Source: a virus
Lineage: Duplodnaviria; Heunggongvirae; Uroviricota; Caudoviricetes
Direction: 5' to 3' (one strand)
Virus record (IMG/VR): IMGVR_UViG_3300022555_000023
Span: 8,095 to 72,094 of that record
DNA: 64,000 nt
Shown here one piece after another: positions 5,690 to 51,847 of this stretch. The position numbers and the translations under genes are program-made. Below the pieces are notes generated by a model. The model was given only the letters and a program-made list of their open reading frames with translations. It ran no database searches and was not told the origin of the DNA. How positions within the stretch are numbered: position 1 is the stretch's first letter; every line of letters starts with the position of its first letter.

Positions 5690-8600
5690 TCAACCCTTGG
5701 CATGCTGCTCAGCTTGGCGACGATAGAATCGTGCCCGACCGAAGTGATTACTCGCTCGGTTCGTGCTGCCGGCAGCTCGGTGCTTCACGGCAGAATCGGC
5801 AAACGCCTCAGATGCCCTGACTGCCAACGAGGCTTTCTCGCCCGGTGATGCCGTGGATGCTCGGTACGCCTTGCCCGCCTGCTGGGCCGTCTTCATGGCC
5901 GCGTCAGCACGCTCCTGCATGGCCGCGTAAGCTGGATGATCCTTGAGCTTGCCCTTGCGGTCTTCAAACTCGTGGTCGCTGGCCCCGTGCTCGTGCAGGT
6001 GCATGAAGGCCATCAGGGCTCGGGCCTGCTCGTCATGGTCTTCGGTTCCGGGCTGGTCTCCGACCGCCTCGGCCAGCTTGGCGGCCTTCATGTGCTTCAC
6101 CGCGGCATCGCCCAGGCGGTTGCCGATCCAGTGGTGCATGGAATCCTCGATGTCGGGCGTCAGGGCCTGCGGCGGTCCACCGTGGTGGTGGGCGTTCATG
6201 GCCTCGCCCGCAGCTATGCGGGCGGCGTAGTCGGCCTGCTCGTACTGGATAGCCTTCTTCGCGTCGGGCTCCTTGGGCTGGCCAGCACTGTACTGATTGC
6301 CGCGGAATTCATGCCCCGCAACGTCACCAAGCTCCAGCGGCACATCCAGACTCAACCGAGCGTCGCGGGGGCGGCGGGGAGGATGGGCTTCAGCCTGGGC
6401 CTTGGCCGCGTTATCTCGCAGGGCCTGCATCCTGCCGGCGGATGGCAGTCTGACCACGTGCTCGCCTGCTCCGCGTATGCGTCGCGATTCCTCCTCGTGT
6501 TCGCGAGCCGCAGAGATTGCTGCCTTCTGGGCGGCGTGGTGCATGCTGGCGAACTCCAGGCTGACGTCACTGCCGTCTTCTTCATGATGCTGGGCGGCGA
6601 GAACATGACCTTTAGCAGCCTTCTGGAACTGCTCGGCGGCCTTATCATGATCTGCCGCCGCACCGGAGGCAATGGCTTTCTTCGCCGTCACCAGGGCCAC
6701 GTTGTTATCGCTGGTCGACGCGATGCTCTTGGCTAGTGCGCCCTTCTGCACCGTACCGGCTAGGGGGAACAACTTATAGTTCCGGATGGCGGCGTTAGCC
6801 TTGGCAGATGATTCTGTTGCCGTGAACTGGTTGCCATGAAACGCGTGCCCTGCGACGTCACCAAGCTCGATAGGTAGATCATGACTCAGGCCCTTGATCT
6901 GGAAATCATTCTGACGGCCCTGCACGTTGGCATTGTGAGCATCCCCGTACTTGCGACCATGCTCGTCATCATCTTCCGGGTTCCAGCCGGCGGCAATGGC
7001 CTGCCTACGCATCTCATCTGCCTGGAGACTCATGCGTTTTCCCTGAGCCATCGAAGTATGACGTGTTGCCAGGTCTTCCAGCTTCTCAGGATCATTGGCA
7101 GCACTCTTCGCCACGGGCAAACCACGGTTCTCATACACGCCCCGCACGGTTCTGCCGACAGCCGCAGCCTCCCTCAGATGACCCGCAGCATCGAGATGAT
7201 GCTGTATGGCCTCGGGTGTATCCCCGGCAGCCAGAGCCCGTGATGCTGCTTGTCCAGCCTGCGTTGTATGGTACTTGTGCTCAACGTAGGCTGACATACT
7301 TACATCATTTGCCGCCGCGTGCGTATCATCATGAAGTTGCTGAGCTGCCGTGACTGCATTGCTTTGCGCTACCGCCGGCAATGCAGTCAAATCTGTCTGG
7401 GGACGGTCATGATACGGCTCGATCATATTCTTACCCACGCTTTGCTGCGGGTTTATGGGCAGTCCCGCATCGTGCGTGATCACAACAGCATTGCCGCGGT
7501 CTTCGACGACCCGGAAGTCACGAGCATCATCTCCGGGATCCTGCCACTCCGGTTTGATGGCTACCCGCTGGCCTGCCAGGTACTGGCCGTGCTGCTCGGC
7601 GGCTCCCTCCAGATACTTAGCCGTCTCAATATGCTCTCGTGCCGCCATTCTGTGCTGGCCGCGTTCAAGCTGGGTCAGCCTTGGTGCCTCAGAGGCATTC
7701 GCATGACCTTCGGCGGCGTCGCGACAACGTGATGCTGCGGCAGAATACAGGCCGTCCTTGACGAGACGCTTCGCATCATCTGAAGCGTCCACATGACGTT
7801 TGCCAGCCCGTGCGCCCTTCGTACTGTTGGTGGCGTCACTAGCCTTCTTCACAGCATCAACGGCTCCCTGGTGCGTGTACTGATTCCCGTGGAACTCGTG
7901 ACCTGCAACGTCACCAAGCTCAAGATCAATATTTAGGCCATGACCTAAATTTAGGTCATCGGCTAACGCGGTGTCAGTTTGGCTCATGGCCATATCCTCT
8001 GGTTTGGTACTTCCAGTCCAAGACTGGAGATGATGGTTCGCCAGTTCCTGTAGGGCCTCGCCGGCAGAGCGACAGGCGTCGGCGGCGTCTTCATGATATG
8101 AATCGTGACCATCGGAACTGTTCAGGTCAGCATCGTTGTGCAGGTCGGCTGTGTGATGATACTCGTTCGCAGCCCTCGCACAGGCTTTGAAAGCAGCGTC
8201 GTTCGACCGGCCCGAGGCTGACTCCTTCAGGGCGACCACGGCTGCCGTGTTGGCCGCACCGTGTGCGTCGCGTGCGGCTGCTCCGCGGCGACCGGGCGGT
8301 GAGCCAATGGCTTCCTTGCTGGCCTTGGCGGCGTAGTCTACGGCCTCCTGTGCGGTCGCGGCGAACCTCCCACGGGCGTCCCGTTCCTGGCCCTCGCCGT
8401 GGCTGGCCCGCAGATCTCCCCGCAGGGCGGTAGCTCCGTCGCCAACAGCGTCGTCCTTGGGCTGGCACGTCTGGCCGCAGGTCGGGCACTTACCATCCTG
8501 ACACGCACCCTTGCAGGCCGGGCAGGTGGCATCCTGGCTCAATGCGGCGTCCTTACCGCCACCGATGAGAACCGGGTGTCCGTTGATCGTGACCCAATGA

Positions 8601-9442
8601 GCATCGTCCGGAAGTTTGGATCCGGCGTTGTGCGTGCGGGCCTTCACGCGGTGCTGGGATGCTGCATCGGACAGGCCCGCCTTCTCGGCCTTGCGGGCTG
8701 CGTCATTCCGGTCTAGATAAGCGTTCCTGTGCGCCCGCCGCAGGTTGACCAGATTGCCGTGGGACGGATCCGCACGGTGGGCGTCCTCGGCGGATTTGAC
8801 CTGGGACGCACGACGGTCGGCCCGTGCAGATGCCGTGGCGTGCTTCTTCAGGTTGCCAGCCTTTTCCTTTTCGGCCTTCTTGGCAGCTTCGGCCTTCGCC
8901 TTATCATCTGCAACCTTTTTATCGGCGGCGGCCTTCTCCCTGGCCAGTCGTTGGCTGCGGGCCACGAAGCCCTCCTGTGGAGTCTGGGCGAGATTTCTGC
9001 GGCCCACGTTAAGAACGCGTCCAATAGCACGGTCGCCAAACACGTTCGTGTTCCAGGCCCCGCCCCGTCCGCGGTTGCGGCCCGCGTCGGTTCGGTCCTT
9101 GACGAACTTCTGCCAGTGCTTCTTGTCGGCTGCGGACATCATATCATGGGAGATCTCGTGATGCCCGCCGGGGTTGGCCTCCTGGTCATGCATCATATCG
9201 TATGCATGGTCGGCAGACTTGGCCGGGCCGTACAGGTTACCTTCTGATATTCCGGGCTGCTCGATGTAGTCGCTGTGGAAGTCGCTGCCCATCTCCGACC
9301 GCATGCGGTCGGCTTTATCTTCATCGGGATAAGGTGCGACGGCGCAGTACCATTTGCCCTTCTCGGGTTCAAAGACCACGCAGTCCCGCTGCACGGACAG
9401 AATCAGGGCGGGCATCTCAACGGGGATATCTAGGGCTGACAT
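5690..9442 (-). CDS. very large Ala-rich protein with three GHxF[HR]GNQ[YF] modules and a Cys-rich knuckle
   Basis: Start moved to ATG 9442 (AAGGATG SD), giving 1250 aa. Modules at 7877..7924, 6824..6871 and 6290..6337. CPACKGACQDGKCPTCGQTC cluster. Confidence 0.8.
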   Translation of the reverse strand: MSALDIPVEMPALILSVQRDCVVFEPEKGKWYCAVAPYPDEDKADRMRSEMGSDFHSDYIEQPGISEGNLYGPAKSADHAYDMMHDQEANPGGHHEISHDMMSAADKKHWQKFVKDRTDAGRNRGRGGAWNTNVFGDRAIGRVLNVGRRNLAQTPQEGFVARSQRLAREKAAADKKVADDKAKAEAAKKAEKEKAGNLKKHATASARADRRASQVKSAEDAHRADPSHGNLVNLRRAHRNAYLDRNDAARKAEKAGLSDAASQHRVKARTHNAGSKLPDDAHWVTINGHPVLIGGGKDAALSQDATCPACKGACQDGKCPTCGQTCQPKDDAVGDGATALRGDLRASHGEGQERDARGRFAATAQEAVDYAAKASKEAIGSPPGRRGAAARDAHGAANTAAVVALKESASGRSNDAAFKACARAANEYHHTADLHNDADLNSSDGHDSYHEDAADACRSAGEALQELANHHLQSWTGSTKPEDMAMSQTDTALADDLNLGHGLNIDLELGDVAGHEFHGNQYTHQGAVDAVKKASDATNSTKGARAGKRHVDASDDAKRLVKDGLYSAAASRCRDAAEGHANASEAPRLTQLERGQHRMAAREHIETAKYLEGAAEQHGQYLAGQRVAIKPEWQDPGDDARDFRVVEDRGNAVVITHDAGLPINPQQSVGKNMIEPYHDRPQTDLTALPAVAQSNAVTAAQQLHDDTHAAANDVSMSAYVEHKYHTTQAGQAASRALAAGDTPEAIQHHLDAAGHLREAAAVGRTVRGVYENRGLPVAKSAANDPEKLEDLATRHTSMAQGKRMSLQADEMRRQAIAAGWNPEDDDEHGRKYGDAHNANVQGRQNDFQIKGLSHDLPIELGDVAGHAFHGNQFTATESSAKANAAIRNYKLFPLAGTVQKGALAKSIASTSDNNVALVTAKKAIASGAAADHDKAAEQFQKAAKGHVLAAQHHEEDGSDVSLEFASMHHAAQKAAISAAREHEEESRRIRGAGEHVVRLPSAGRMQALRDNAAKAQAEAHPPRRPRDARLSLDVPLELGDVAGHEFRGNQYSAGQPKEPDAKKAIQYEQADYAARIAAGEAMNAHHHGGPPQALTPDIEDSMHHWIGNRLGDAAVKHMKAAKLAEAVGDQPGTEDHDEQARALMAFMHLHEHGASDHEFEDRKGKLKDHPAYAAMQERADAAMKTAQQAGKAYRASTASPGEKASLAVRASEAFADSAVKHRAAGSTNRASNHFGRARFYRRQAEQHAKG

Positions 9443-9672
9443 GATACATCCTTGGTTAGCGGCGGGCATGCTTCATGCGGTTCATGGCATGCCAAACATC
9501 GCAGGCATAATGATGCTGCGATGAAATTTGTGGCTTCAGTGATGAACTTCTCACGACGAGACGCTTCGTCCTTCTCATAGCGGCGGAACTTCTCATACAG
9601 GTTCTCAGCCAGGCGGCGAGCAAACTCGTCGTGATTACGCATCGCATCTCGGGCCTCCGTATCACATAGCAT
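9430..9672 (-). CDS. hypothetical small helical protein
   Basis: Part of ORF 9430..9735. RNHDEFARRLAENLYEKFRRYEKDEA looks protein-like. Start uncertain. Confidence 0.4.
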   Translation of the reverse strand: MLCDTEARDAMRNHDEFARRLAENLYEKFRRYEKDEASRREKFITEATNFIAASLCLRCLACHEPHEACPPLTKDVSCQP

Positions 9673-10579: not shown

Positions 10580-11283
10580 ATTGAGCCCCCTGGAAATGCA
10601 GCCCGCCCAGTCATTGGGCTTAAACGTTGCTCGCCTCGGGTGCTTCTAGATTTAAATGTGGGGCGGGGGCCTGAATCTGTTGCCGGGTCGGAAAAGCGAG
10701 TGGCGGCTGTGTTTGGCGCGTCCGACCCGATTTTCAAAGCTGTAGTCCCCGTGACCCCCCGTCCATGAGAAGCATCACGTCTCCTGTCTACATAGATACT
10801 GTCTACATAGATACTGTCTACATAGATACTGTCTACATAGATACTGTCTACATCCGCCCCCATGACTTCCGTTTGCTTCGGTATGATATCCTTATCATAT
10901 TGTTGTTGAATCAACGTGTGACGCGACGCACAACCACGCAACATGTCTATACAGATCTTGTTACGTCGCTGTGCGTTCATTACGCTACTCCTGTACACCG
11001 TCTTCGATCACGCGACGCAACCGTGATCTCCTGCGATCACTGGATGTCTTGCGTTGCACACGTCCATTAGATTACAGTTACTGTTCGCGTGTGTATGATC
11101 TTCATTCATCGTTCGTTTCATGAAGACGCGTCCTGTCACGCGTCTCACGCTCGTCCTTGGGTTTAAATCTTCCCTTAGAGTTGCCCAGCCATCTGTATGA
11201 CGTACACATCGTGCAACGCACGCTGCGTCTACGCTTACCGTTGGTCTTACGTCGTGTGCCCATGTGCGTGTGTGATCTCGTGG
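10580..11283. other. ~700-bp non-coding gap with tandem repeat and hairpins (candidate origin or regulatory hub)
   Basis: Only low-complexity or Arg-rich ORFs here. Inverted repeats GATCACG-N9-CGTGATC (~11007) and GACGCGT-N6-ACGCGTC (~11124). Stem GGGTCGGA..TCCGACCC (~10686-10729). Confidence 0.5.
10784..10854. repeat. 15-bp tandem repeat CTGTCTACATAGATA x 4.7
   Basis: Perfect head-to-tail copies read directly from the sequence. Confidence 0.95.
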
Positions 11284-11478: not shown

Positions 11479-11666
11479 GGCTTGGCTACCTCATGTGCCG
11501 TAATAGTGATACTGCCGCCCGCGTCAACGACCGGCTTATCGTTGGCGACCAATTGGCGTAACAGGCCGATGGCACTTAGGCCGTGAAATTGGGCCTCTGT
11601 GTAACTGGCCTGTGTGATGATCATGTTGTCCTTGTCCTTGGCGACAACGTTGTAGGTCATGGTCAT
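11475..11666 (-). CDS. hypothetical protein
   Basis: Trimmed to ATG 11666 (GGAGCC SD, ATGA overlap with the stop of 11663..12226). Confidence 0.55.
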   Translation of the reverse strand: MTMTYNVVAKDKDNMIITQASYTEAQFHGLSAIGLLRQLVANDKPVVDAGGSITITAHEVAKP

Positions 11667-12226
11667 GATTTCGGCTCCTGTGATGTTGAAAAGTAAATAC
11701 AATCGCTCTCGTGAAAATGCCTTGTTGTTCCGCCCTTGTAAATCTTGATTTCGGCCTGTGGGAATTCCTCGTGGAACATGGCCTCAGTTAATACGTGCAA
11801 ATGCAACTTGTCTGTGGGCCAGTTAATCGGCTCGAAGACTCGCAGCACTTTTGCACATGACTTCGCCTTCCTTAGTATCATTCTGGGATCGACTACATGC
11901 TGCAGCACGTTGAAGATCCACGCTTCATCGAAAATCGAGGGTGCCTCGTACTGCTCGAACGGCAGGGGGATGATCTCGACGTCGTCTCGTTGCAGCTTGT
12001 CATGATACGCGACCCACAGCGGATCAACGTTCACGGCTCTGCGAAACATCGGCAAGTTGCCGCATACCGGAAAGTTTCCACCGCCGATCTCCAGGATCGT
12101 TCTGTCTGCTACGTCCTCGGCTGTGATGGCGAGATACTGGAAAACCTCATAGTTTCGGCGACTAACATCAGCGTTCTGGCCGTGATGCTTCTCATGGCTC
12201 TGGGCCTCGATCCATTGTTTGTTCAT
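11663..12226 (-). CDS. class I SAM-dependent methyltransferase
   Basis: Motif I ILEIGGG. Later AWIFNVLQHVVDP is typical of Methyltransf_11/23-like folds. Confidence 0.75.
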   Translation of the reverse strand: MNKQWIEAQSHEKHHGQNADVSRRNYEVFQYLAITAEDVADRTILEIGGGNFPVCGNLPMFRRAVNVDPLWVAYHDKLQRDDVEIIPLPFEQYEAPSIFDEAWIFNVLQHVVDPRMILRKAKSCAKVLRVFEPINWPTDKLHLHVLTEAMFHEEFPQAEIKIYKGGTTRHFHESDCIYFSTSQEPKS

Positions 12227-12471
12227 TTTGGCCCCTTCAAGCTCGTCATACTATCGTACAACAGGAAAGCGGTTCGTTGAAATTCTCGCACTGCCTTTCT
12301 CAACTTGGTCTGGGCCTCGCTGGATGCGGCTTTAATATCCATCATTTTTAAGGCCCTTGTGTCGGCCTCGATATTCGCGGCCAGATGAGCGGCCCTCAAA
12401 TTGGCTTGTGGATCCGGCTCGGGTTTTACGGGATTTTCGGGCAAGCTGGCTATGGTCAGTTTACGATCCAT
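12223..12471 (-). CDS. hypothetical protein
   Basis: 82-aa ORF, 4-nt overlap with downstream gene. Confidence 0.55.
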   Translation of the reverse strand: MDRKLTIASLPENPVKPEPDPQANLRAAHLAANIEADTRALKMMDIKAASSEAQTKLRKAVREFQRTAFLLYDSMTSLKGPK

Positions 12472-12475
12472 GATA

Positions 12476-13177
12476 TTACGCCAGCCTGTACTTCGTGAAC
12501 GTCCAGAAGGTCTCGAACAATGGGCAGTAGCGGCAGAACCTGTGAAACTCCGCCGTAGCCTCGTCCTGGAGAAGCCTGATGATTCTGGTTTCAGACTTCG
12601 ACTTGTGCTCGCCGGTTTGTGATATGACCCACTTGCCGCGGAAGGCCCGCGCTAGATTGAGCCTGTAATCCTCGGATGCATGAGTCGGCTCGACAGTCAT
12701 ATCATCAAAAACAACGTCGTACTTGTCGGCGTTCTCGTACAAGTATCGGAACGCGTCACCTACGTTCACGTGCAGCTTGTGGGCCTCGCCGTTAAGGCTT
12801 ATGGGAAAGTGCCGCCGGCAAACGTCGAGAACCTCGCTATCAATCTCACAGCATGTGACTCGTGCCACGTTGGGCAGGTCGCATAGCTCGGCTGCCAGGC
12901 TGCCGTCGCCTCCGCCCATGATCAAGACCCGCATGTGATCCATGTCGGGCAGCAGGTCGAGCATAGCCCGATCATACTCAGTATCACTGTTGGCCGACAT
13001 AACATCGTCGCCCACGATGAGGGTCTTGCCATGAGCCTCATGATCCATGACCCTAATGATCTGAAAAGGCGACTTGCGCTCTTCGAGAATTCCAGAGAAC
13101 TTGTACCTGACCGGCCCGACGCGGTCTTCACTGTAGATAGTCAGGGATAATCCGTCATCGTCCCACTGTGAGTTCAT
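12476..13177 (-). CDS. spermidine synthase-like aminopropyltransferase
   Basis: SPFQIIRV..GKTLIVGDDVMSANSDTEYDRAM, VLIMGGGDGS and CEIDSEVLDVCRRHFP match the spermidine synthase (SpeE) family pattern. Confidence 0.7.
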   Translation of the reverse strand: MNSQWDDDGLSLTIYSEDRVGPVRYKFSGILEERKSPFQIIRVMDHEAHGKTLIVGDDVMSANSDTEYDRAMLDLLPDMDHMRVLIMGGGDGSLAAELCDLPNVARVTCCEIDSEVLDVCRRHFPISLNGEAHKLHVNVGDAFRYLYENADKYDVVFDDMTVEPTHASEDYRLNLARAFRGKWVISQTGEHKSKSETRIIRLLQDEATAEFHRFCRYCPLFETFWTFTKYRLA

Positions 13178-13718
13178 TTGTCTTTCCTGTCAGGTCATCG
13201 TGAGGTGCATCCCGATACAGGAAGTTAACTTTCCTGAACTTGGGCTTGAATCGTTCGTCGATCATCTTCAGGACGACCGACTGGTCATACGGCTTGCACG
13301 AGAAGATATCGAAGTACATGCTGCCGATGCGGTTGTCGCCGTGCATGGAGATGTTACTGGTTGTGATAAGCTGTAACGCACTCCAGCCACCATCGGAATC
13401 CGTGCCGAAGTTATACAGGAACGGCTCGCCCACGGCGGTCATCTTGATGGCCGCGACCAGATCCTTGATGAACTTCTTGATCTGCTTGCCGTCGTCGATG
13501 TTCTTGTTGCAGCCGGAGCAGTCCACCATCATGTGAAAGCCCCAATGCTCCTTGCCGTCTTCGCCCGTGAACAGATCATTTCGGGGATCGCGTTTGAGGT
13601 CGACTACGGGCGACTCGGGAATCGCGGCGGCATCTACGGGAGCGTCGCCCTGGGCCAGTTTGAGGTCGGCCTCGCGACCAGGCCGCAGGGACAGGAAAGA
13701 ATTCAGTTCGTGGTTCAT
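13155..13718 (-). CDS. S-adenosylmethionine decarboxylase-like (pyruvoyl proenzyme type)
   Basis: GFHMMVDCSGC.., LQLITTSNISMHGD.. and YFDIFSCKPYD resemble class 1 AdoMetDC. T-S sits where the E-S self-cleavage site normally lies. Confidence 0.6.
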   Translation of the reverse strand: MNHELNSFLSLRPGREADLKLAQGDAPVDAAAIPESPVVDLKRDPRNDLFTGEDGKEHWGFHMMVDCSGCNKNIDDGKQIKKFIKDLVAAIKMTAVGEPFLYNFGTDSDGGWSALQLITTSNISMHGDNRIGSMYFDIFSCKPYDQSVVLKMIDERFKPKFRKVNFLYRDAPHDDLTGKTNELTVGR

Positions 13719-14008
13719 ACTATTGCGCCTCTCGTGATATGAAAATGAGCGTGGCCCGCACTCGATGCGTCGATGCTCGGCTCGATGGTTATCGTGTCAA
13801 AGTCCTCGTCGCCAATCAACGTCCACGTATGATCCTGTCGTGCCGGATGGCACAAGATGTACTGGTCGTCGATGGCTTCGCGTCCCTTATGATGAAACTG
13901 TACCGCCAACCTGATATTCCTGCAACAGGGACAGTCGAACGTCAGGCCCACAAGTACGGTCTCGCCGGCGAAGGTCCACCACCGCGGGTTCAGTTCTCTC
14001 AGCCTCAT
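13715..14008 (-). CDS. DUF6527-like protein
   Basis: CPCC..W..IGDEDFDTITIEPSI..H.HFHITRGAIV pattern as I recall it for DUF6527. Confidence 0.45.
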   Translation of the reverse strand: MRLRELNPRWWTFAGETVLVGLTFDCPCCRNIRLAVQFHHKGREAIDDQYILCHPARQDHTWTLIGDEDFDTITIEPSIDASSAGHAHFHITRGAIV

Positions 14009-19570: not shown

Positions 19571-19798
19571 TTAATTTGCCACCCATCCCAGGTTGTTGTG
19601 CCATACCACGTCGCCGCGCTCCCGCGGCGTCAGTTCACGATAGTAGTCTCGATGCGACCAGTGATAGTTACGATCCTCACCATCGTGGTGAACCCGCGGC
19701 TTCACATGCAGGAGGTTGCCGTCCACGTCACCGACAATGAACTCGCATCCCGCACGCGGGCCTTGTATCTGGATCACTATGTCACCCGCTTCGATCAT
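19571..19798 (-). CDS. hypothetical protein
   Basis: 75-aa ORF. Confidence 0.55.
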   Translation of the reverse strand: MIEAGDIVIQIQGPRAGCEFIVGDVDGNLLHVKPRVHHDGEDRNYHWSHRDYYRELTPRERGDVVWHNNLGWVAN

Positions 19799-20756
19799 TA
19801 TTTCGTACCTTCACGCAACGGTCCCACGACTCACCAAACACCCTCTCCCAGTCATTGCTGCTCACATCGAGGTAGCGGGCAACCCAGGATCGCACGTCAA
19901 GCCGGGTTTGCAGGCCCTCGCGGTGCTTGATCAGGGACAGGCCGGCGTCTGGCGTACCGGGCCGCAGGTCGTCGATGCTCAGGCGGGGCACGTCGGGCAG
20001 CAGTGGCCGCACCACGTCGCTGAAGGCCCGATAGTAGTCCGGAATGCCTGTGTCGCTAGGCAGGGCCAAACTGAACGCCAGGGGCGGGTATAGCTGGCCG
20101 TGCATTTCATCCTCCAGCCAGCAATGTACCTCCCGCACCTTGCCGCGAGCAAGCCTTCGCAGGGGCACGACATGCTCCTTCCACGTGAACTCGCCCGTGC
20201 CTTGCCAGATATCGAAGAATCCGCTGTCGTATGATCCCGGCTGGCAGTCCTTCAGGAACTGGAACAGGTCGGCTCGCACCACGCGTCGGTATTCCTTCCG
20301 CAGGGCCATGCGGCACAGATTCGGCCACACCAAGTCGATGATACGCTGGTCGTTCTCCACGACGGTGATGCCCTTGACCCGGCGATTGTAAGTCGCGTAT
20401 GTGGGAGCAACTCCCAAGCCCAGACCGCCGATCAGGGTATTGCCGTGCAGATACTGGACGGCGTCGTCCATCTGCCATAGCTCGCAGGGCACTGTGGACA
20501 TCCACGTGCCGCCCTCGTACTTCAGGGCGTTCGTGATGACGTCACTGGAGAACCGCAGCGAGACTGGTCGCTTTCCCATCAGAATCGCGTTACGCATCGA
20601 CACCAGATCGATGGGTACGCCGGCCTTGATGGTACTGATCACCACCTCGACGTCCTCGATCTTGCCGGGAGGTATCATCGGCATGCGTCGCAGCAGGCGG
20701 CACATGCGAGTGTTCGTATCCTCGGGCGTCTTGTTGCGTACCAGGGTTCGGCTCAT
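19782..20756 (-). CDS. Rossmann-fold SAM-methyltransferase/spermidine-synthase-like protein
   Basis: LIGGLGLGVAPTYA..GITVVENDQRIIDL..DSGFFDIW resembles motifs I, II and the post-I acidic residue. Confidence 0.5.
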   Translation of the reverse strand: MSRTLVRNKTPEDTNTRMCRLLRRMPMIPPGKIEDVEVVISTIKAGVPIDLVSMRNAILMGKRPVSLRFSSDVITNALKYEGGTWMSTVPCELWQMDDAVQYLHGNTLIGGLGLGVAPTYATYNRRVKGITVVENDQRIIDLVWPNLCRMALRKEYRRVVRADLFQFLKDCQPGSYDSGFFDIWQGTGEFTWKEHVVPLRRLARGKVREVHCWLEDEMHGQLYPPLAFSLALPSDTGIPDYYRAFSDVVRPLLPDVPRLSIDDLRPGTPDAGLSLIKHREGLQTRLDVRSWVARYLDVSSNDWERVFGESWDRCVKVRNNDRSG

Positions 20757-31283: not shown

Positions 31284-32711
31284 TTACTTCACGGCCTCGG
31301 CGGTCTTGACCGCAGCCTTGGCCTTCGCGGGCGGCACGTCCGCTGTGGGCATCGACAATAGCATGGTTGGCCCTGCACCGCTGCTGCCGTTCATTAGGTA
31401 CACCGGCATGCGGCCATCCCAGGTCTCCAGCATGCGGCTCTGGATTTCAAGCTGCTTCAGCATCAGGTACGCCTGCGGGTTCTCCTGAAGTTTCTGTAGC
31501 TCATACGCCTTGGCGTCGGCGACAGCCTGGATGCCCTTGGCTTCGCCCTGCTTGATGGCCAGCACCTTGGCTGCCTCGCCCTCGCCCACGGCCTGCAAAG
31601 CCTTCTTACGCTCCGTGGCGGCTTCCTGTTCGGCCTTGGCGACGTTCTTGTCCTGCTGCTGCTGGAAGACCTTGTCAATGGATGTCTGGATGTTAGGATT
31701 TGCGTAGGTCAAACCACCCTTCATACCAATGCTTGTGATGGTAATTCCTCGCTCGACGAAGTACTTCTGAGCCTCGTCTCGCATCGCCTTCAGGAACTCG
31801 GTCTTCCTATTGCGACCTTCATCCATCGTGTACTTGGCCGCCTCGTCGGAGAAAACCCGCTGGAGAACGGCTCGCACCTCGGTATCCATGACGTCTTCAA
31901 GCCCTACGGTCTTAACGACGTAGTCATCCTTGTATCCGCCGCCCGCCTTGATGACCCTATCCTTGTTCGCCGGATAGTTGAAGAAGAACTTAACCGCGTC
32001 TTCCTCAGTCAGAATACGGGCAACGATGGAGATGCCGCAGGAGAAGTTCACCGAATCACTGGACTCGACGTCAATGGCCTGGTCCCTGAACGACGTTCCT
32101 GTGTGCGGGGCTGCGGTCCACTCTCGCGTACATGGAACGCGATCTACAATGAAAACCTGAGCGTCGGGGATAAACTTGCCGTTGTTCCAACCATGACCCA
32201 TGTCCTGCCAGCGGTACGGAATAAGGATGCGCTTCGACTGCACCCAGGGTTTGCCCTCGGCAGTCTGCTGAATGAACATCTGCGTGGTCTTCGTCGCCGT
32301 TTGCTTGCTGTTGTCCTCCTTCTTCACCATGAATGCCGTCTCGGAATTACCGACATCGACGAAGACCGGAGTATCGTAGGGCGACTGACACCCACCGACA
32401 AGCAATAGCAGCAACAACGCTGGTGACATACTGGTCGCAAAGGTTTTGCCCGCCTTCGTGGCGCGCTTCAGTTCGGGCATGAAGGTCAGCAAGGTCAGCA
32501 GGGAGAACGAAGTCCAGATGATCGTGCCTGGGTACTGCTTGGCGACTTGCCAGAATCGCATGTTCTGCTGCTCATGCCGGGAGCGACTGTGATCAAGCTG
32601 GTTGTAAGCCATTTGGTCGTTCACCTCCGGAACGACAGCGTAGTGCCAGTAGCTGTGAGCCACCAATGCAGCCACGAACATGAATCCTATCAGAAACACT
32701 TTTGCAAACAT
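31284..32711 (-). CDS. SPFH/band-7 (prohibitin/HflK-like) membrane protein
   Basis: N-terminal transmembrane helices and an internal lipobox-like LLLLLVGGC. The SPFH core and Ala/Glu/Lys-rich coiled coil (..QQQDKNVAKAEQEAATERKKAL..) are typical of the family. Confidence 0.8.
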   Translation of the reverse strand: MFAKVFLIGFMFVAALVAHSYWHYAVVPEVNDQMAYNQLDHSRSRHEQQNMRFWQVAKQYPGTIIWTSFSLLTLLTFMPELKRATKAGKTFATSMSPALLLLLLVGGCQSPYDTPVFVDVGNSETAFMVKKEDNSKQTATKTTQMFIQQTAEGKPWVQSKRILIPYRWQDMGHGWNNGKFIPDAQVFIVDRVPCTREWTAAPHTGTSFRDQAIDVESSDSVNFSCGISIVARILTEEDAVKFFFNYPANKDRVIKAGGGYKDDYVVKTVGLEDVMDTEVRAVLQRVFSDEAAKYTMDEGRNRKTEFLKAMRDEAQKYFVERGITITSIGMKGGLTYANPNIQTSIDKVFQQQQDKNVAKAEQEAATERKKALQAVGEGEAAKVLAIKQGEAKGIQAVADAKAYELQKLQENPQAYLMLKQLEIQSRMLETWDGRMPVYLMNGSSGAGPTMLLSMPTADVPPAKAKAAVKTAEAVK

Positions 32712-51183: not shown

Positions 51184-51404
51184 CGTTTGCCTCCGATGTT
51201 CACGCCAAACATGGTTTCACCGTGCAGGCAGCGGCAGCACGGGCACATGCACGCAGGCTGGCACGGCATGTTGCCAGGATGACCGATATAGCCCTTGTGG
51301 CCACAGCCTAGATACATGCACTGCACGCCGGTGCTGCCGTCATCCAGCTTGCAGGCCCGGTACGATGGGAAACCCGAAGGTGCTGTGCCGTCGCCGATGA
51401 TCAT
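51180..51404 (-). CDS. small Cys-rich protein
   Basis: 74 aa with 10 Cys. Confidence 0.5.
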   Translation of the reverse strand: MIIGDGTAPSGFPSYRACKLDDGSTGVQCMYLGCGHKGYIGHPGNMPCQPACMCPCCRCLHGETMFGVNIGGKR

Positions 51405-51847
51405 ACTTGCCTCTCGACGTAAGTTGTGGAATCTCCCCAGGCCACGCCGGTCATATCCATGCTGATTAATCCTGCCTTGCGAACGTAATGCGTCACCAGC
51501 AAGTCGTTCTCAGGTTCGGGCAGGTAACCTATCGGCAGGCCCAGTTCCGCAGCGAAGAGTCGCTCCTCTCGCAGACCGACCGATTCCTGCCATCCCTCGA
51601 TCTCCGTGATCAGCATCGCCTGGCTACGTTCCAGCATCATGTGGTCGAACCGCTTCCAGTATTCCCAGTCCAGAGGCAGCCCGTGGGCCACAGCAATTGG
51701 GTGAGCATGCACGATAGGTGCGAACACGAAGCACCCGGCCCGCTTCAGAATCGATGCGCAGTGCGTCACGATCTCAAACCGCCGTCGCCTCACATCAGCG
51801 TCCTTGTGCGTGTACGGCGACGATAGGTAGATCAGCTTCCCTGTCAT
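51401..51847 (-). CDS. DUF1937 / nucleoside 2-deoxyribosyltransferase-like protein
   Basis: IYLSSPYTH..VFAPIVHAHP..W..D..GWQESVGLREE pattern. Confidence 0.5.
   Translation of the reverse strand: MTGKLIYLSSPYTHKDADVRRRRFEIVTHCASILKRAGCFVFAPIVHAHPIAVAHGLPLDWEYWKRFDHMMLERSQAMLITEIEGWQESVGLREERLFAAELGLPIGYLPEPENDLLVTHYVRKAGLISMDMTGVAWGDSTTYVERQV

Follow-up and report, generated by a model that had tools for sequence, protein, structure and literature searches.

Gene layout at the locus

We analysed a 64,000-nucleotide stretch of the IMG/VR virus record IMGVR_UViG_3300022555_000023 (Caudoviricetes; positions 8,095 to 72,094 of the record), referred to below as the window, and describe a candidate polyamine cassette that it carries: a gene for a SpeD-like pyruvoyl-dependent decarboxylase, a gene for a short, SpeE-like aminopropyltransferase (APT) and a small conserved open reading frame (ORF), orf82. 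Together with an ORF for a methyltransferase-like protein they form a run of four ORFs (11663-12226, 12223-12471, 12476-13177 and 13155-13718), all on the minus strand, as is every gene in the window. The SpeD-like gene is preceded by a DUF6527 ORF, with which it shares 4 nt (ATGA), and has 23 nt in common with the SpeE-like gene. Between the SpeE-like gene and orf82 lie 4 nt, and the overlap of orf82 with the methyltransferase ORF is again 4 nt. The four ORFs are packed in the manner of an operon. An earlier note on this DNA, made from the sequence alone, had described the same four ORFs and their compact arrangement, and its coordinates proved correct. The features of the cassette are as follows.

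13155..13718, minus strand: SpeD-family pyruvoyl-dependent decarboxylase proenzyme, 187 aa (Pfam AdoMet_dc, phrog_3125)
13356..13361, minus strand: predicted self-cleavage site T120-S121 of the SpeD-like protein (alignment to T. maritima S63)
13341-13343, minus strand: codon of H126 of the SpeD-like protein (aligns with T. maritima H68)
13296-13298, minus strand: codon of C141 of the SpeD-like protein (aligns with T. maritima C83)
12476..13177, minus strand: short polyamine APT, 233 aa (Pfam Spermine_synth, AlphaFold2 model, Foldseek)
12905..12916, minus strand: GGGD motif G88-D91, predicted site for decarboxylated S-adenosylmethionine (dcAdoMet) in the APT (alignment)
12701-12706, minus strand: D158-D159 of the short APT (alignment)
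12223..12471, minus strand: orf82, small conserved protein directly downstream of the short APT (tblastn)

The identical SpeD-like protein, with the same neighbours, was found on a 192,532-bp metagenomic contig, and the cassette therefore belongs to a large uncultured phage. The window covers about a third of this genome of at least 192 kb, and about 45 of its ORFs were scanned. Genes typical of phages in the window encode RecA/UvsX-like, SbcC-like and SbcD-like proteins, a 5'-3' exonuclease, a Dam methylase, a sigma factor region 4 protein and HNH endonucleases. A nucleotide search of the whole region against the phage collection gave no match.

A short aminopropyltransferase

The 233-aa protein matches the Pfam model Spermine_synth (PF01564) with an E-value of 3.3e-19 (69.6 bits against a cut-off of 22.9). 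A phmmer search of the PDB returned 26 aminopropyltransferases (best E-value 1.5e-17, over aa 28-164), and human, plant, Plasmodium and bacterial spermidine synthases align over approximately aa 25-165. The AlphaFold2 model, built with a 43-sequence alignment, has a predicted local distance difference test (pLDDT) score of 93 and a predicted template modelling (pTM) score of 0.90; its strands at aa 2-62, followed by alternating strands and helices, correspond to the two-domain fold of an N-terminal SpeE beta domain and a Rossmann core. When this model was compared with the PDB by Foldseek, the 50 best matches listed were aminopropyltransferases throughout (TMq 0.71-0.81), namely spermidine, spermine and thermospermine synthases and agmatine/triamine aminopropyltransferases. 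Membership of the family is thus read directly from the profile, and by family and predicted fold together we class the protein as a polyamine APT. The aminopropyltransferase-like call made for this ORF in the earlier note is upheld by the Pfam match, the model and the fold matches alike.

Q39, G88-D91, E111 and D141 align with motifs of human spermidine synthase (GGGDG, CEID, and GDG plus the catalytic Asp), and Y68, D113 and D158-D159 are further conserved site residues. Gln39, Tyr68, the GGGD Asp, Glu111 and Asp141 correspond to the positions that hold dcAdoMet in solved SpeE structures, and Asp159 to the one that deprotonates the amine; among relatives these residues are nearly or fully invariant. 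D159 occupies the position of the catalytic Asp (T. maritima D170, human D173) and is invariant in both family alignments; in the 15-member alignment of short APTs, the invariant residues are G88, G89, G90, D91, D113, D154, D159, W225 and F227. The GGGD Asp that the short APT keeps is characteristic of dcAdoMet-using enzymes. The active-site Asp residues D91 and D159 are in place, as is S121, the predicted pyruvoyl-forming serine of the partner decarboxylase.

The acceptor side of the site departs from the usual form. With DDMTVEPTHASE in place of D-S-T-D-P-x-G-P...LF, its gatekeeping loop lacks about 5 residues; the acidic residue, E163, has moved and varies within the family (PTP in L006); and the protein ends at W225-T-F227, with the C-terminal ~50 aa missing. 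In canonical SpeE, the second acidic residue and the full gatekeeping loop bind the distal amine of putrescine. As a consequence of these departures, the protein scores far below the NCBIfam equivalog cut-offs (99 bits with PRK00811 against a cut-off of 260, with aa 18-168 aligned).

Short APTs are rare. An exhaustive HMMER search of 1.84 billion representatives yielded ~15 clusters of end-to-end short APTs and only 4 matches at E<=1e-30. The D-x-T-x-x-P loop and the W-x-F end are also found in ~357-aa fusions with canonical S-adenosylmethionine (AdoMet or SAM) decarboxylase (AdoMetDC) and in proteins of DPANN archaea, a recurrence that argues that the short form is not degenerate. At L115:1304-2921, a short APT with 36% identity to that of the window stands alone; a SET-domain ORF and a Mutator-family transposase precede it, and its 5.7-kb contig has no SpeD gene.

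The SpeD-like decarboxylase

The 187-aa protein matches the Pfam model AdoMet_dc (PF02675; 9.8e-18, 64.9 bits against a cut-off of 25) and phrog_3125. With the NCBIfam AdoMetDC equivalog TIGR03330 it stays below the cut-off (35.3 against 75.65 bits), and a phmmer search of the PDB gave no match to any AdoMetDC. Profiles built from cellular sequences only score it at 128.7 bits for the HF type, which is that of ornithine decarboxylases (ODCs), 122.0 bits for the HT type and 30.5 bits for canonical SpeD. Identity over the core is 38% to the protein of Ca. Electrothrix (L044), an assayed pyruvoyl ODC, 34% to the assayed ODC SpeD2 domains of Desulfotignum and Omnitrophica and 29% to the AdoMetDC of Sinorhizobium phage phiN3; with canonical AdoMetDCs it is 14-19%.

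S121, H126 and C141 align with S63, H68 and C83 of the T. maritima enzyme, which are essential for self-processing and catalysis (PMC10407285). The cleavage-site context, ITTSNISMH, holds T120-S121, and Ser121 is predicted to become the pyruvoyl group after cleavage between these two residues. Four residues, Gln, Thr, Phe and Tyr, are diagnostic of the ODC (SpeDC) group (Fig. 8 of PMC10407285), and the Pro of the HTWPE motif is completely conserved in bona fide AdoMetDCs (PMC10407285). In Fig. S5 of the same paper, from which we read the diagnostic positions, AdoMetDC domains carry AESH..VH.WPE..D.FTCG and fused ODC domains QLIETS...GHF....AY.D.FSC (PMC10407285). Across this region the window protein reads LQLITTSNISMHGDNRIGSMYFDIFSC. 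Its Q116, T120 and Y135 are diagnostic ODC residues, the diagnostic Phe is replaced by G127 throughout its subclade (see below), and H126-G-D-N-R takes the place of the HTWPE motif, without the Pro; the phiN3 AdoMetDC likewise lacks this Pro.

A genome scan found more than 578 cellular relatives of the SpeD-like protein, one of them the assayed Ca. Electrothrix ODC, and x-T-S stands at the cleavage site in all 80 relatives inspected. The Thr-Ser site, correctly read in the earlier note and set there against the canonical Glu-Ser, is thus best regarded as a marker of the SpeDC clade and not as an oddity. By profile score and motif, the protein is assigned to the SpeDC (ODC-type) superclade and not to the bona fide AdoMetDC clade; the earlier AdoMetDC-like label therefore stands for the family and fails for the clade (30.5 against 128.7 bits, no Pro). 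Since the Thr-Ser, Gln and Tyr marks are those of a clade whose assayed members are ODCs, the SpeD-like protein may not use SAM. By the same token, phage genes with a Q-L-I-x-T-S motif are probably mislabelled where they are annotated as "AdoMet decarboxylase".

In a neighbour-joining (NJ) tree, the window protein falls in a superclade that includes three assayed ODCs and the phiN3 AdoMetDC. Within it, the window protein and those of P0005, P0007, P0008/P0009 and P0010 form a subclade with a bootstrap value of 91. This subclade is marked by H-G-(D/A)-(N/D), hence HG subclade, and by N-terminal (~55 aa) and C-terminal extensions.

Two observations on cellular SpeD proteins were made in passing. 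At L103:2726-3106 (minus strand), a cellular SpeD gene is convergent with a short APT gene; the protein reads LLSTSHISIHTWPE and has canonical AdoMetDC hallmarks (STSH...HTWPE) yet a Thr-Ser cleavage site, so Thr at position -1 also occurs outside the ODC clade. In 18 of the 80 cellular SpeDC-like proteins, H-(T/S)-N-D...R-D-M-Y replaces the diagnostic Phe, and the substrate of these proteins may differ. They come from Spirochaetota, Planctomycetota, Omnitrophota and Alphaproteobacteria (L041, L048, L050, L051, L060, L063-L066, L068, L075, L079, L082, L085, L086, L088, L093 and L094).

The conserved module and its relatives

Pairing of the two genes was observed directly in at least five phage lineages: SpeD-like and short APT genes are adjacent in the window, in the P0005 lineage, in the P0008/P0009 lineage, in P0007 and in P0283. 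In the P0007 lineage they are convergent, on a 327-kb contig, and on the P0283 contig the gene that precedes the short APT encodes a 195-aa protein labelled AdoMet_dc. In the closer lineages orf82 follows the short APT and travels with the SpeD-like and SpeE-like genes; tblastn places it immediately behind the SpeE-like gene in L002-L005 and L014, with 43-49% identity. It has no Pfam, PHROG or NCBIfam match. That orf82 could be a decayed speD was considered and dropped, there being no profile match.

The methyltransferase of 11663-12226 was absent from all related loci. It adjoins the conserved module and is not part of it, and the unit is therefore decarboxylase, transferase and orf82. The trio of SAM-utilising enzymes that the earlier note had taken as the unit does not survive this comparison. 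A programmed frameshift fusing the SpeD-like and SpeE-like proteins was also rejected, because the 23-nt overlap is not conserved: relatives show a 4-nt overlap or a 5-nt gap instead.

In IMG/VR, a scan with the short-APT profile returned only a giant-virus metagenome-assembled genome (MAG) with a canonical SpeE and SpeD pair, and a scan with the HG-subclade profile only P0010-type genes, which have an ArgZ-like partner, and HF-type genes. The wiring of SpeDC-type gene, short APT and orf82 is thus absent from the IMG/VR scans with both profiles. A metagenome scan for short APTs gave only six loci, with more distant members of the type and no SpeD neighbour in the available flanks, and such enzymes can therefore use dcAdoMet supplied by the host. 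Outside the HG subclade, the closest relatives of the window SpeD-like protein are 117-120-aa proteins on phage-like contigs (46-49% identical), which carry all four ODC-diagnostic residues and have no SpeE neighbour.

The makeup of the module bears on whether the transferase acts on a polyamine at all. It might instead modify DNA, a protein or a small molecule, possibly together with the methyltransferase. The acceptor side of the APT is remodelled, with its short loop, C-terminal loss and extra invariant Asp158, the conserved small partner orf82 follows the APT gene, and a methyltransferase-fold gene adjoins the cassette in the window phage. However, the methyltransferase is not conserved with the pair, the same short architecture is fused to AdoMetDC in cellular genomes, Pelagibacter AdoMetDC-APT fusions make ordinary polyamines (PMC11107197), and the 50 best fold matches listed are aminopropyltransferases only. 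No DNA-hypermodification genes were seen among the ~45 window ORFs scanned, and no hydroxymethylase, base kinase or similar enzyme was found among those annotated. We consider a non-polyamine acceptor the least probable of the explanations weighed here. The earlier note had left the choice between polyamines and DNA bases or small molecules open. Of these, polyamine synthesis is best supported, and nothing speaks for the transfer of aminopropyl or aminocarboxypropyl groups to DNA bases or small molecules, given the lack of modification genes among the window ORFs scanned, in about a third of the genome, and the retained GGGD Asp.

A related idea, which we think improbable, is that the HG-type decarboxylase, the truncated APT and orf82 could form a three-part machine with a chemistry undescribed for phages. 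In one version the decarboxylase would act on both ornithine and AdoMet, and two genes would then suffice to make spermidine from ornithine and SAM; in another the APT would have an unusual acceptor, its opened site aminopropylating an unusual amine or a macromolecule.

Substrate of the decarboxylase and product of the pair

Our favoured reading, held with middling confidence, is that the cassette would combine a pyruvoyl ODC with a short APT and would raise putrescine and spermidine synthesis during infection. We infer the substrates and the product in the following scheme; family and fold, conserved catalytic residues and gene pairing are seen in the data. In a first step, the 187-aa proenzyme would cleave itself between T120 and S121 to generate its pyruvoyl cofactor, as the conserved Ser, His and Cys suggest, and would convert L-ornithine to putrescine, as suggested by clade, motifs and gene context. 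In a second step, the short APT would move the aminopropyl group of dcAdoMet to the diamine, giving spermidine or a close analogue, as its fold and site residues indicate. The host's AdoMetDC would supply the dcAdoMet; no second SpeD homolog was found in the 64-kb window. A larger polyamine supply would probably help to replicate and package the phage genome, which has at least 192 kb.

Cellular gene order offers a parallel. Of the 80 cellular loci, 24 have a SpeDC-type gene immediately before speE, and in 23 of these 24 a separate canonical speD comes next. The cellular speDC-speE-speD arrangement represents a full operon from ornithine through putrescine to spermidine, and the phage pair mirrors its first two genes. 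By profile comparison, the phage short APT is not derived from the full-length SpeEs of these operons. The 24 loci lie within L045-L092 (e.g., L057:3962-5759) and belong to MAGs of Alpha- and Gammaproteobacteria; with a SpeDC-type protein (ETS..HF), a full-length SpeE and a canonical SpeD, each amounts to a pyruvoyl-dependent route from ornithine to spermidine.

A second line of evidence comes from P0010, which shares the H-G-D motif and, alone in the HG subclade, is without a transferase partner. The gene that overlaps it encodes 282 aa, with Alr4995/AgrE (6lrf, 2.4e-18) and Sll1336/ArgZ as best sequence matches in the PDB. In cyanobacteria, Sll1336 (argZ) is the arginine dihydrolase of the ornithine-ammonia cycle, and its reaction yields ornithine, as Zhang et al. 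reportedly found in 2018. The P0010-type pair of SpeD-like and ArgZ-like genes recurs in two IMG/VR contigs. Such a partner is sensible only if the decarboxylase uses ornithine, and it therefore favours ornithine as the substrate. The overlapping HG-type and 282-aa genes were also noted at L008:6001-7289, and at L009, L104 and L105, on T4-like freshwater phage contigs; to judge by its sequence, this pair looks like a phage route from arginine through ornithine to putrescine.

Several points weigh against ornithine. The third ODC-diagnostic residue, the Phe after His, is Gly in the HG subclade, and the N- and C-terminal extensions of the subclade are not seen in assayed ODCs; given these two departures, the HG subclade may have changed its substrate. 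The SpeDC clade holds one proven AdoMetDC, that of phiN3, which scores like the window protein. Because the phiN3 enzyme is indistinguishable from the ODCs by profile score, membership of the clade does not fix the substrate. Strict pairing with a consumer of dcAdoMet is what is expected of an AdoMetDC, and the known fusions join short APTs to canonical AdoMetDC. As to the data, the deep nodes of the NJ tree are without support values, and two of the reference ODC sequences were obtained by optical character recognition from a supplementary figure and corrected by hand. Finally, the 64 kb analysed are part of a genome of at least 192 kb, and a canonical speD could lie elsewhere in it.

These points lead to the alternative that the SpeD-like protein is again an AdoMetDC, as in phiN3, and feeds dcAdoMet to the short APT, which would use host putrescine. 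The logic would be that of the validated pair of AdoMetDC and spermidine synthase (SpdSyn) of an uncultured Caudovirales phage. The phiN3 enzyme, of the same superclade and without the Pro and Glu of HTWPE, still complements ΔspeD; the HG subclade lacks the diagnostic Phe of the ODC consensus; HG-type genes are almost always found beside a dcAdoMet-consuming enzyme; fusions of AdoMetDC and short APT exist; and Thr-Ser is compatible with canonical hallmarks, as L103 illustrates (STSH...HTWPE). On the other hand, the window protein is nearer to the assayed ODCs (34-38% identity) than to phiN3 (29%), the arginine dihydrolase-like partner of P0010 has no logical link to AdoMet, and cellular operons have a separate canonical speD in addition to the SpeDC-type gene upstream of speE. 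Among the assayed members of the clade in the cited papers, at least 12 are ODCs and one is an AdoMetDC. We regard this alternative as a serious competitor, though less likely than the ornithine reading.

The amine pocket raises a different question, namely whether the pair takes the arginine route: a SpeDA-like arginine decarboxylase (ADC) would be combined with an APT that uses agmatine (giving N1-aminopropylagmatine) or another amine other than putrescine, and a host ureohydrolase would finish spermidine. Loss of the Pro is a mark of ADC-type homologs (PMC10407285), and ADC activity arose several times, with pelagiphage ADCs near the ODC clade (PMC10407285, PMC9992855). To judge by the shorter gatekeeping loop and the lack of conservation at the second acidic position, the amine pocket may be altered, and a T. 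thermophilus agmatine/triamine APT is among the fold matches. Yet the Gln, Thr and Tyr of the window protein are specific to ODCs and are not ADC marks, no agmatinase lies nearby, unlike in the Microcystis phage MaAM05, and the P0010 partner makes ornithine, not agmatine. An arginine route is decidedly improbable in our view, and a cassette acting on ornithine remains our preferred reading.

Neighbouring genes and other features of the window

Two further ORFs flank the module.

13715..14008, minus strand: DUF6527/BubE-family ORF, directly upstream of the SpeD-like gene (Pfam DUF6527, 1.7e-6)
11663..12226, minus strand: probable class I SAM-methyltransferase-fold protein, 187 aa (weak matches)

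The DUF6527 ORF, named BubE in precomputed Pfam annotations, occupies the same position in L014, L101, L096 and L097 and not in L002-L005. For the protein of 11663-12226, all Pfam matches are below threshold, among them Methyltransf_23 (E=7e-4, 19.8 bits against a cut-off of 27). It matches phrog_3603 (function unknown) at 1.6e-12, and its sole phage homologs are hypothetical proteins of Synechococcus phage ACG-2014f. A single-sequence search of the PDB gave no match; a two-sequence profile found the SAM-binding core of plant N-methyltransferases there (E=2.8e-4). The sequence contains ILEIGGG, which resembles motif I, and the single-sequence AlphaFold2 model (pLDDT 29) is unusable. The protein probably has a class I SAM-methyltransferase fold, and the same call in the earlier note is weakly supported by the two-sequence profile and the sub-threshold Pfam matches.

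A further ORF, at 19782-20756, had been described in that note as spermidine-synthase-like, and we considered it as a second SpeE. This was not borne out: Spermine_synth scores it below the cut-off (E=0.019, 14.9 bits), the short-APT profile gives a weak E=0.004, and its only other match is to a generic methyltransferase PHROG. On these scores it is classed as a different methyltransferase-fold protein and not as SpeE. A single-sequence PDB search with orf324 gave nothing useful.

Other features were noted in the window. At 5690-9469 (minus strand), a 1259-aa protein rich in Ala, Asp and His, with no Pfam or PHROG match, carries the motif (L/I)ELGDVAGH-x-F-x-GNQ(Y/F) three times, at residues 516, 867 and 1045. 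A perfect 15-bp tandem repeat, CTGTCTACATAGATA x 4.7, occupies 10784-10853, within a stretch of ~10.6-11.0 kb that has no convincing gene; near 10 kb, just upstream of the repeat, G+C content falls from ~0.61 to 0.53. An SPFH/Band 7 domain protein of 475 aa (31284-32711, minus strand) and a DUF1937 protein of 148 aa (51401-51847, minus strand) are unrelated to the cassette.

Comparison with known systems

Polyamine enzymes encoded by phages have only recently come to be recognised as a class of auxiliary metabolic genes. Li et al. (2023, PNAS) reported SpdSyn genes clustered with class 1b AdoMetDC genes in one phage and two phycodnaviruses, and confirmed both activities by complementation for the uncultured Caudovirales phage and for Heterosigma akashiwo virus (PMC9992855). 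Many phage "speD" genes were found to encode pyruvoyl ODCs or ADCs (PMC9992855). Validated so far are thus one phage pair of AdoMetDC and spermidine synthase and several stand-alone pyruvoyl ODCs and ADCs. The earlier note's premise, that AdoMetDC alone is known from cyanophages, is outdated as an account of phages in general, and the general idea of a phage polyamine cassette is not new. If our reading is true, the cassette is wired differently, pairing a minimal APT with an ODC-type SpeD homolog, in several large-phage lineages. In our literature search we did not find a description of an extended SpeDC-clade decarboxylase wired to a minimal APT and a small conserved ORF, nor of the L008-type phage gene pair from arginine through ornithine to putrescine. 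Because the published diagnostic residues do not all hold for the HG subclade, the cassette is a natural test case for substrate shifts in the SpeD family; it is also one for the minimal size of a working APT.

The closest known system is that of the uncultured freshwater Caudovirales phage, which like the window has adjacent SpeD-family and aminopropyltransferase genes, with spermidine as the expected product. Its SpeD complements ΔspeD, whereas the window homolog is of the SpeDC (ODC) type, and its SpeD and SpdSyn have their nearest homologs in gamma-proteobacteria (PMC9992855). In contrast to that phage, the window has an APT truncated to 233 aa, with few relatives, and a conserved 82-aa ORF after the transferase.

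For the decarboxylase, the phage ODCs LBP and UCP01-04 (117-122 aa, PMC9992855) share QLI-x-TS ... H ... Y-x-D-I-F-S-C with the window protein. The 117-120-aa homologs described above match these assayed ODCs in size; they stand alone, have Phe after His and lack extensions, whereas the window subclade has H-G-D-N, extensions and a short APT neighbour. The phiN3 AdoMetDC, the best match of the window protein in the phage collection, likewise belongs to the SpeDC superclade and is without the HTWPE motif. However, this proven AdoMetDC has a D-S cleavage site, keeps the Phe, is 27-29% identical and has no SpeE neighbour.

Among cellular systems, the bacterial speDC-speE-speD operons share with the window a SpeDC-type gene directly upstream of an aminopropyltransferase gene, but add a canonical AdoMetDC and a full-length SpeE (DSTDPVGPG loop), neither of which the phage pair has. 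The ~357-aa AdoMetDC-APT fusions have the short APT with the same D-x-T-x-x-P loop and W-x-F end; their decarboxylase domain is canonical (ISESH...HTYPE) and covalently joined, whereas that of the window is SpeDC-type and encoded by a separate gene. AdoMetDC-APT fusions of Pelagibacter, whether of this short type or not, make spermidine and spermine or thermospermine in E. coli (PMC11107197). Finally, the speH_2-speH_1-speE-speB cluster of Microcystis phage MaAM05 resembles the window in combining SpeD homologs with an aminopropyltransferase, but it encodes a canonical AdoMetDC, an ADC-like SpeD (AESH...HSF), a full-length SpeE (1e-92 to B. subtilis SpeE) and an agmatinase, and as annotated would provide a complete arginine-based route.

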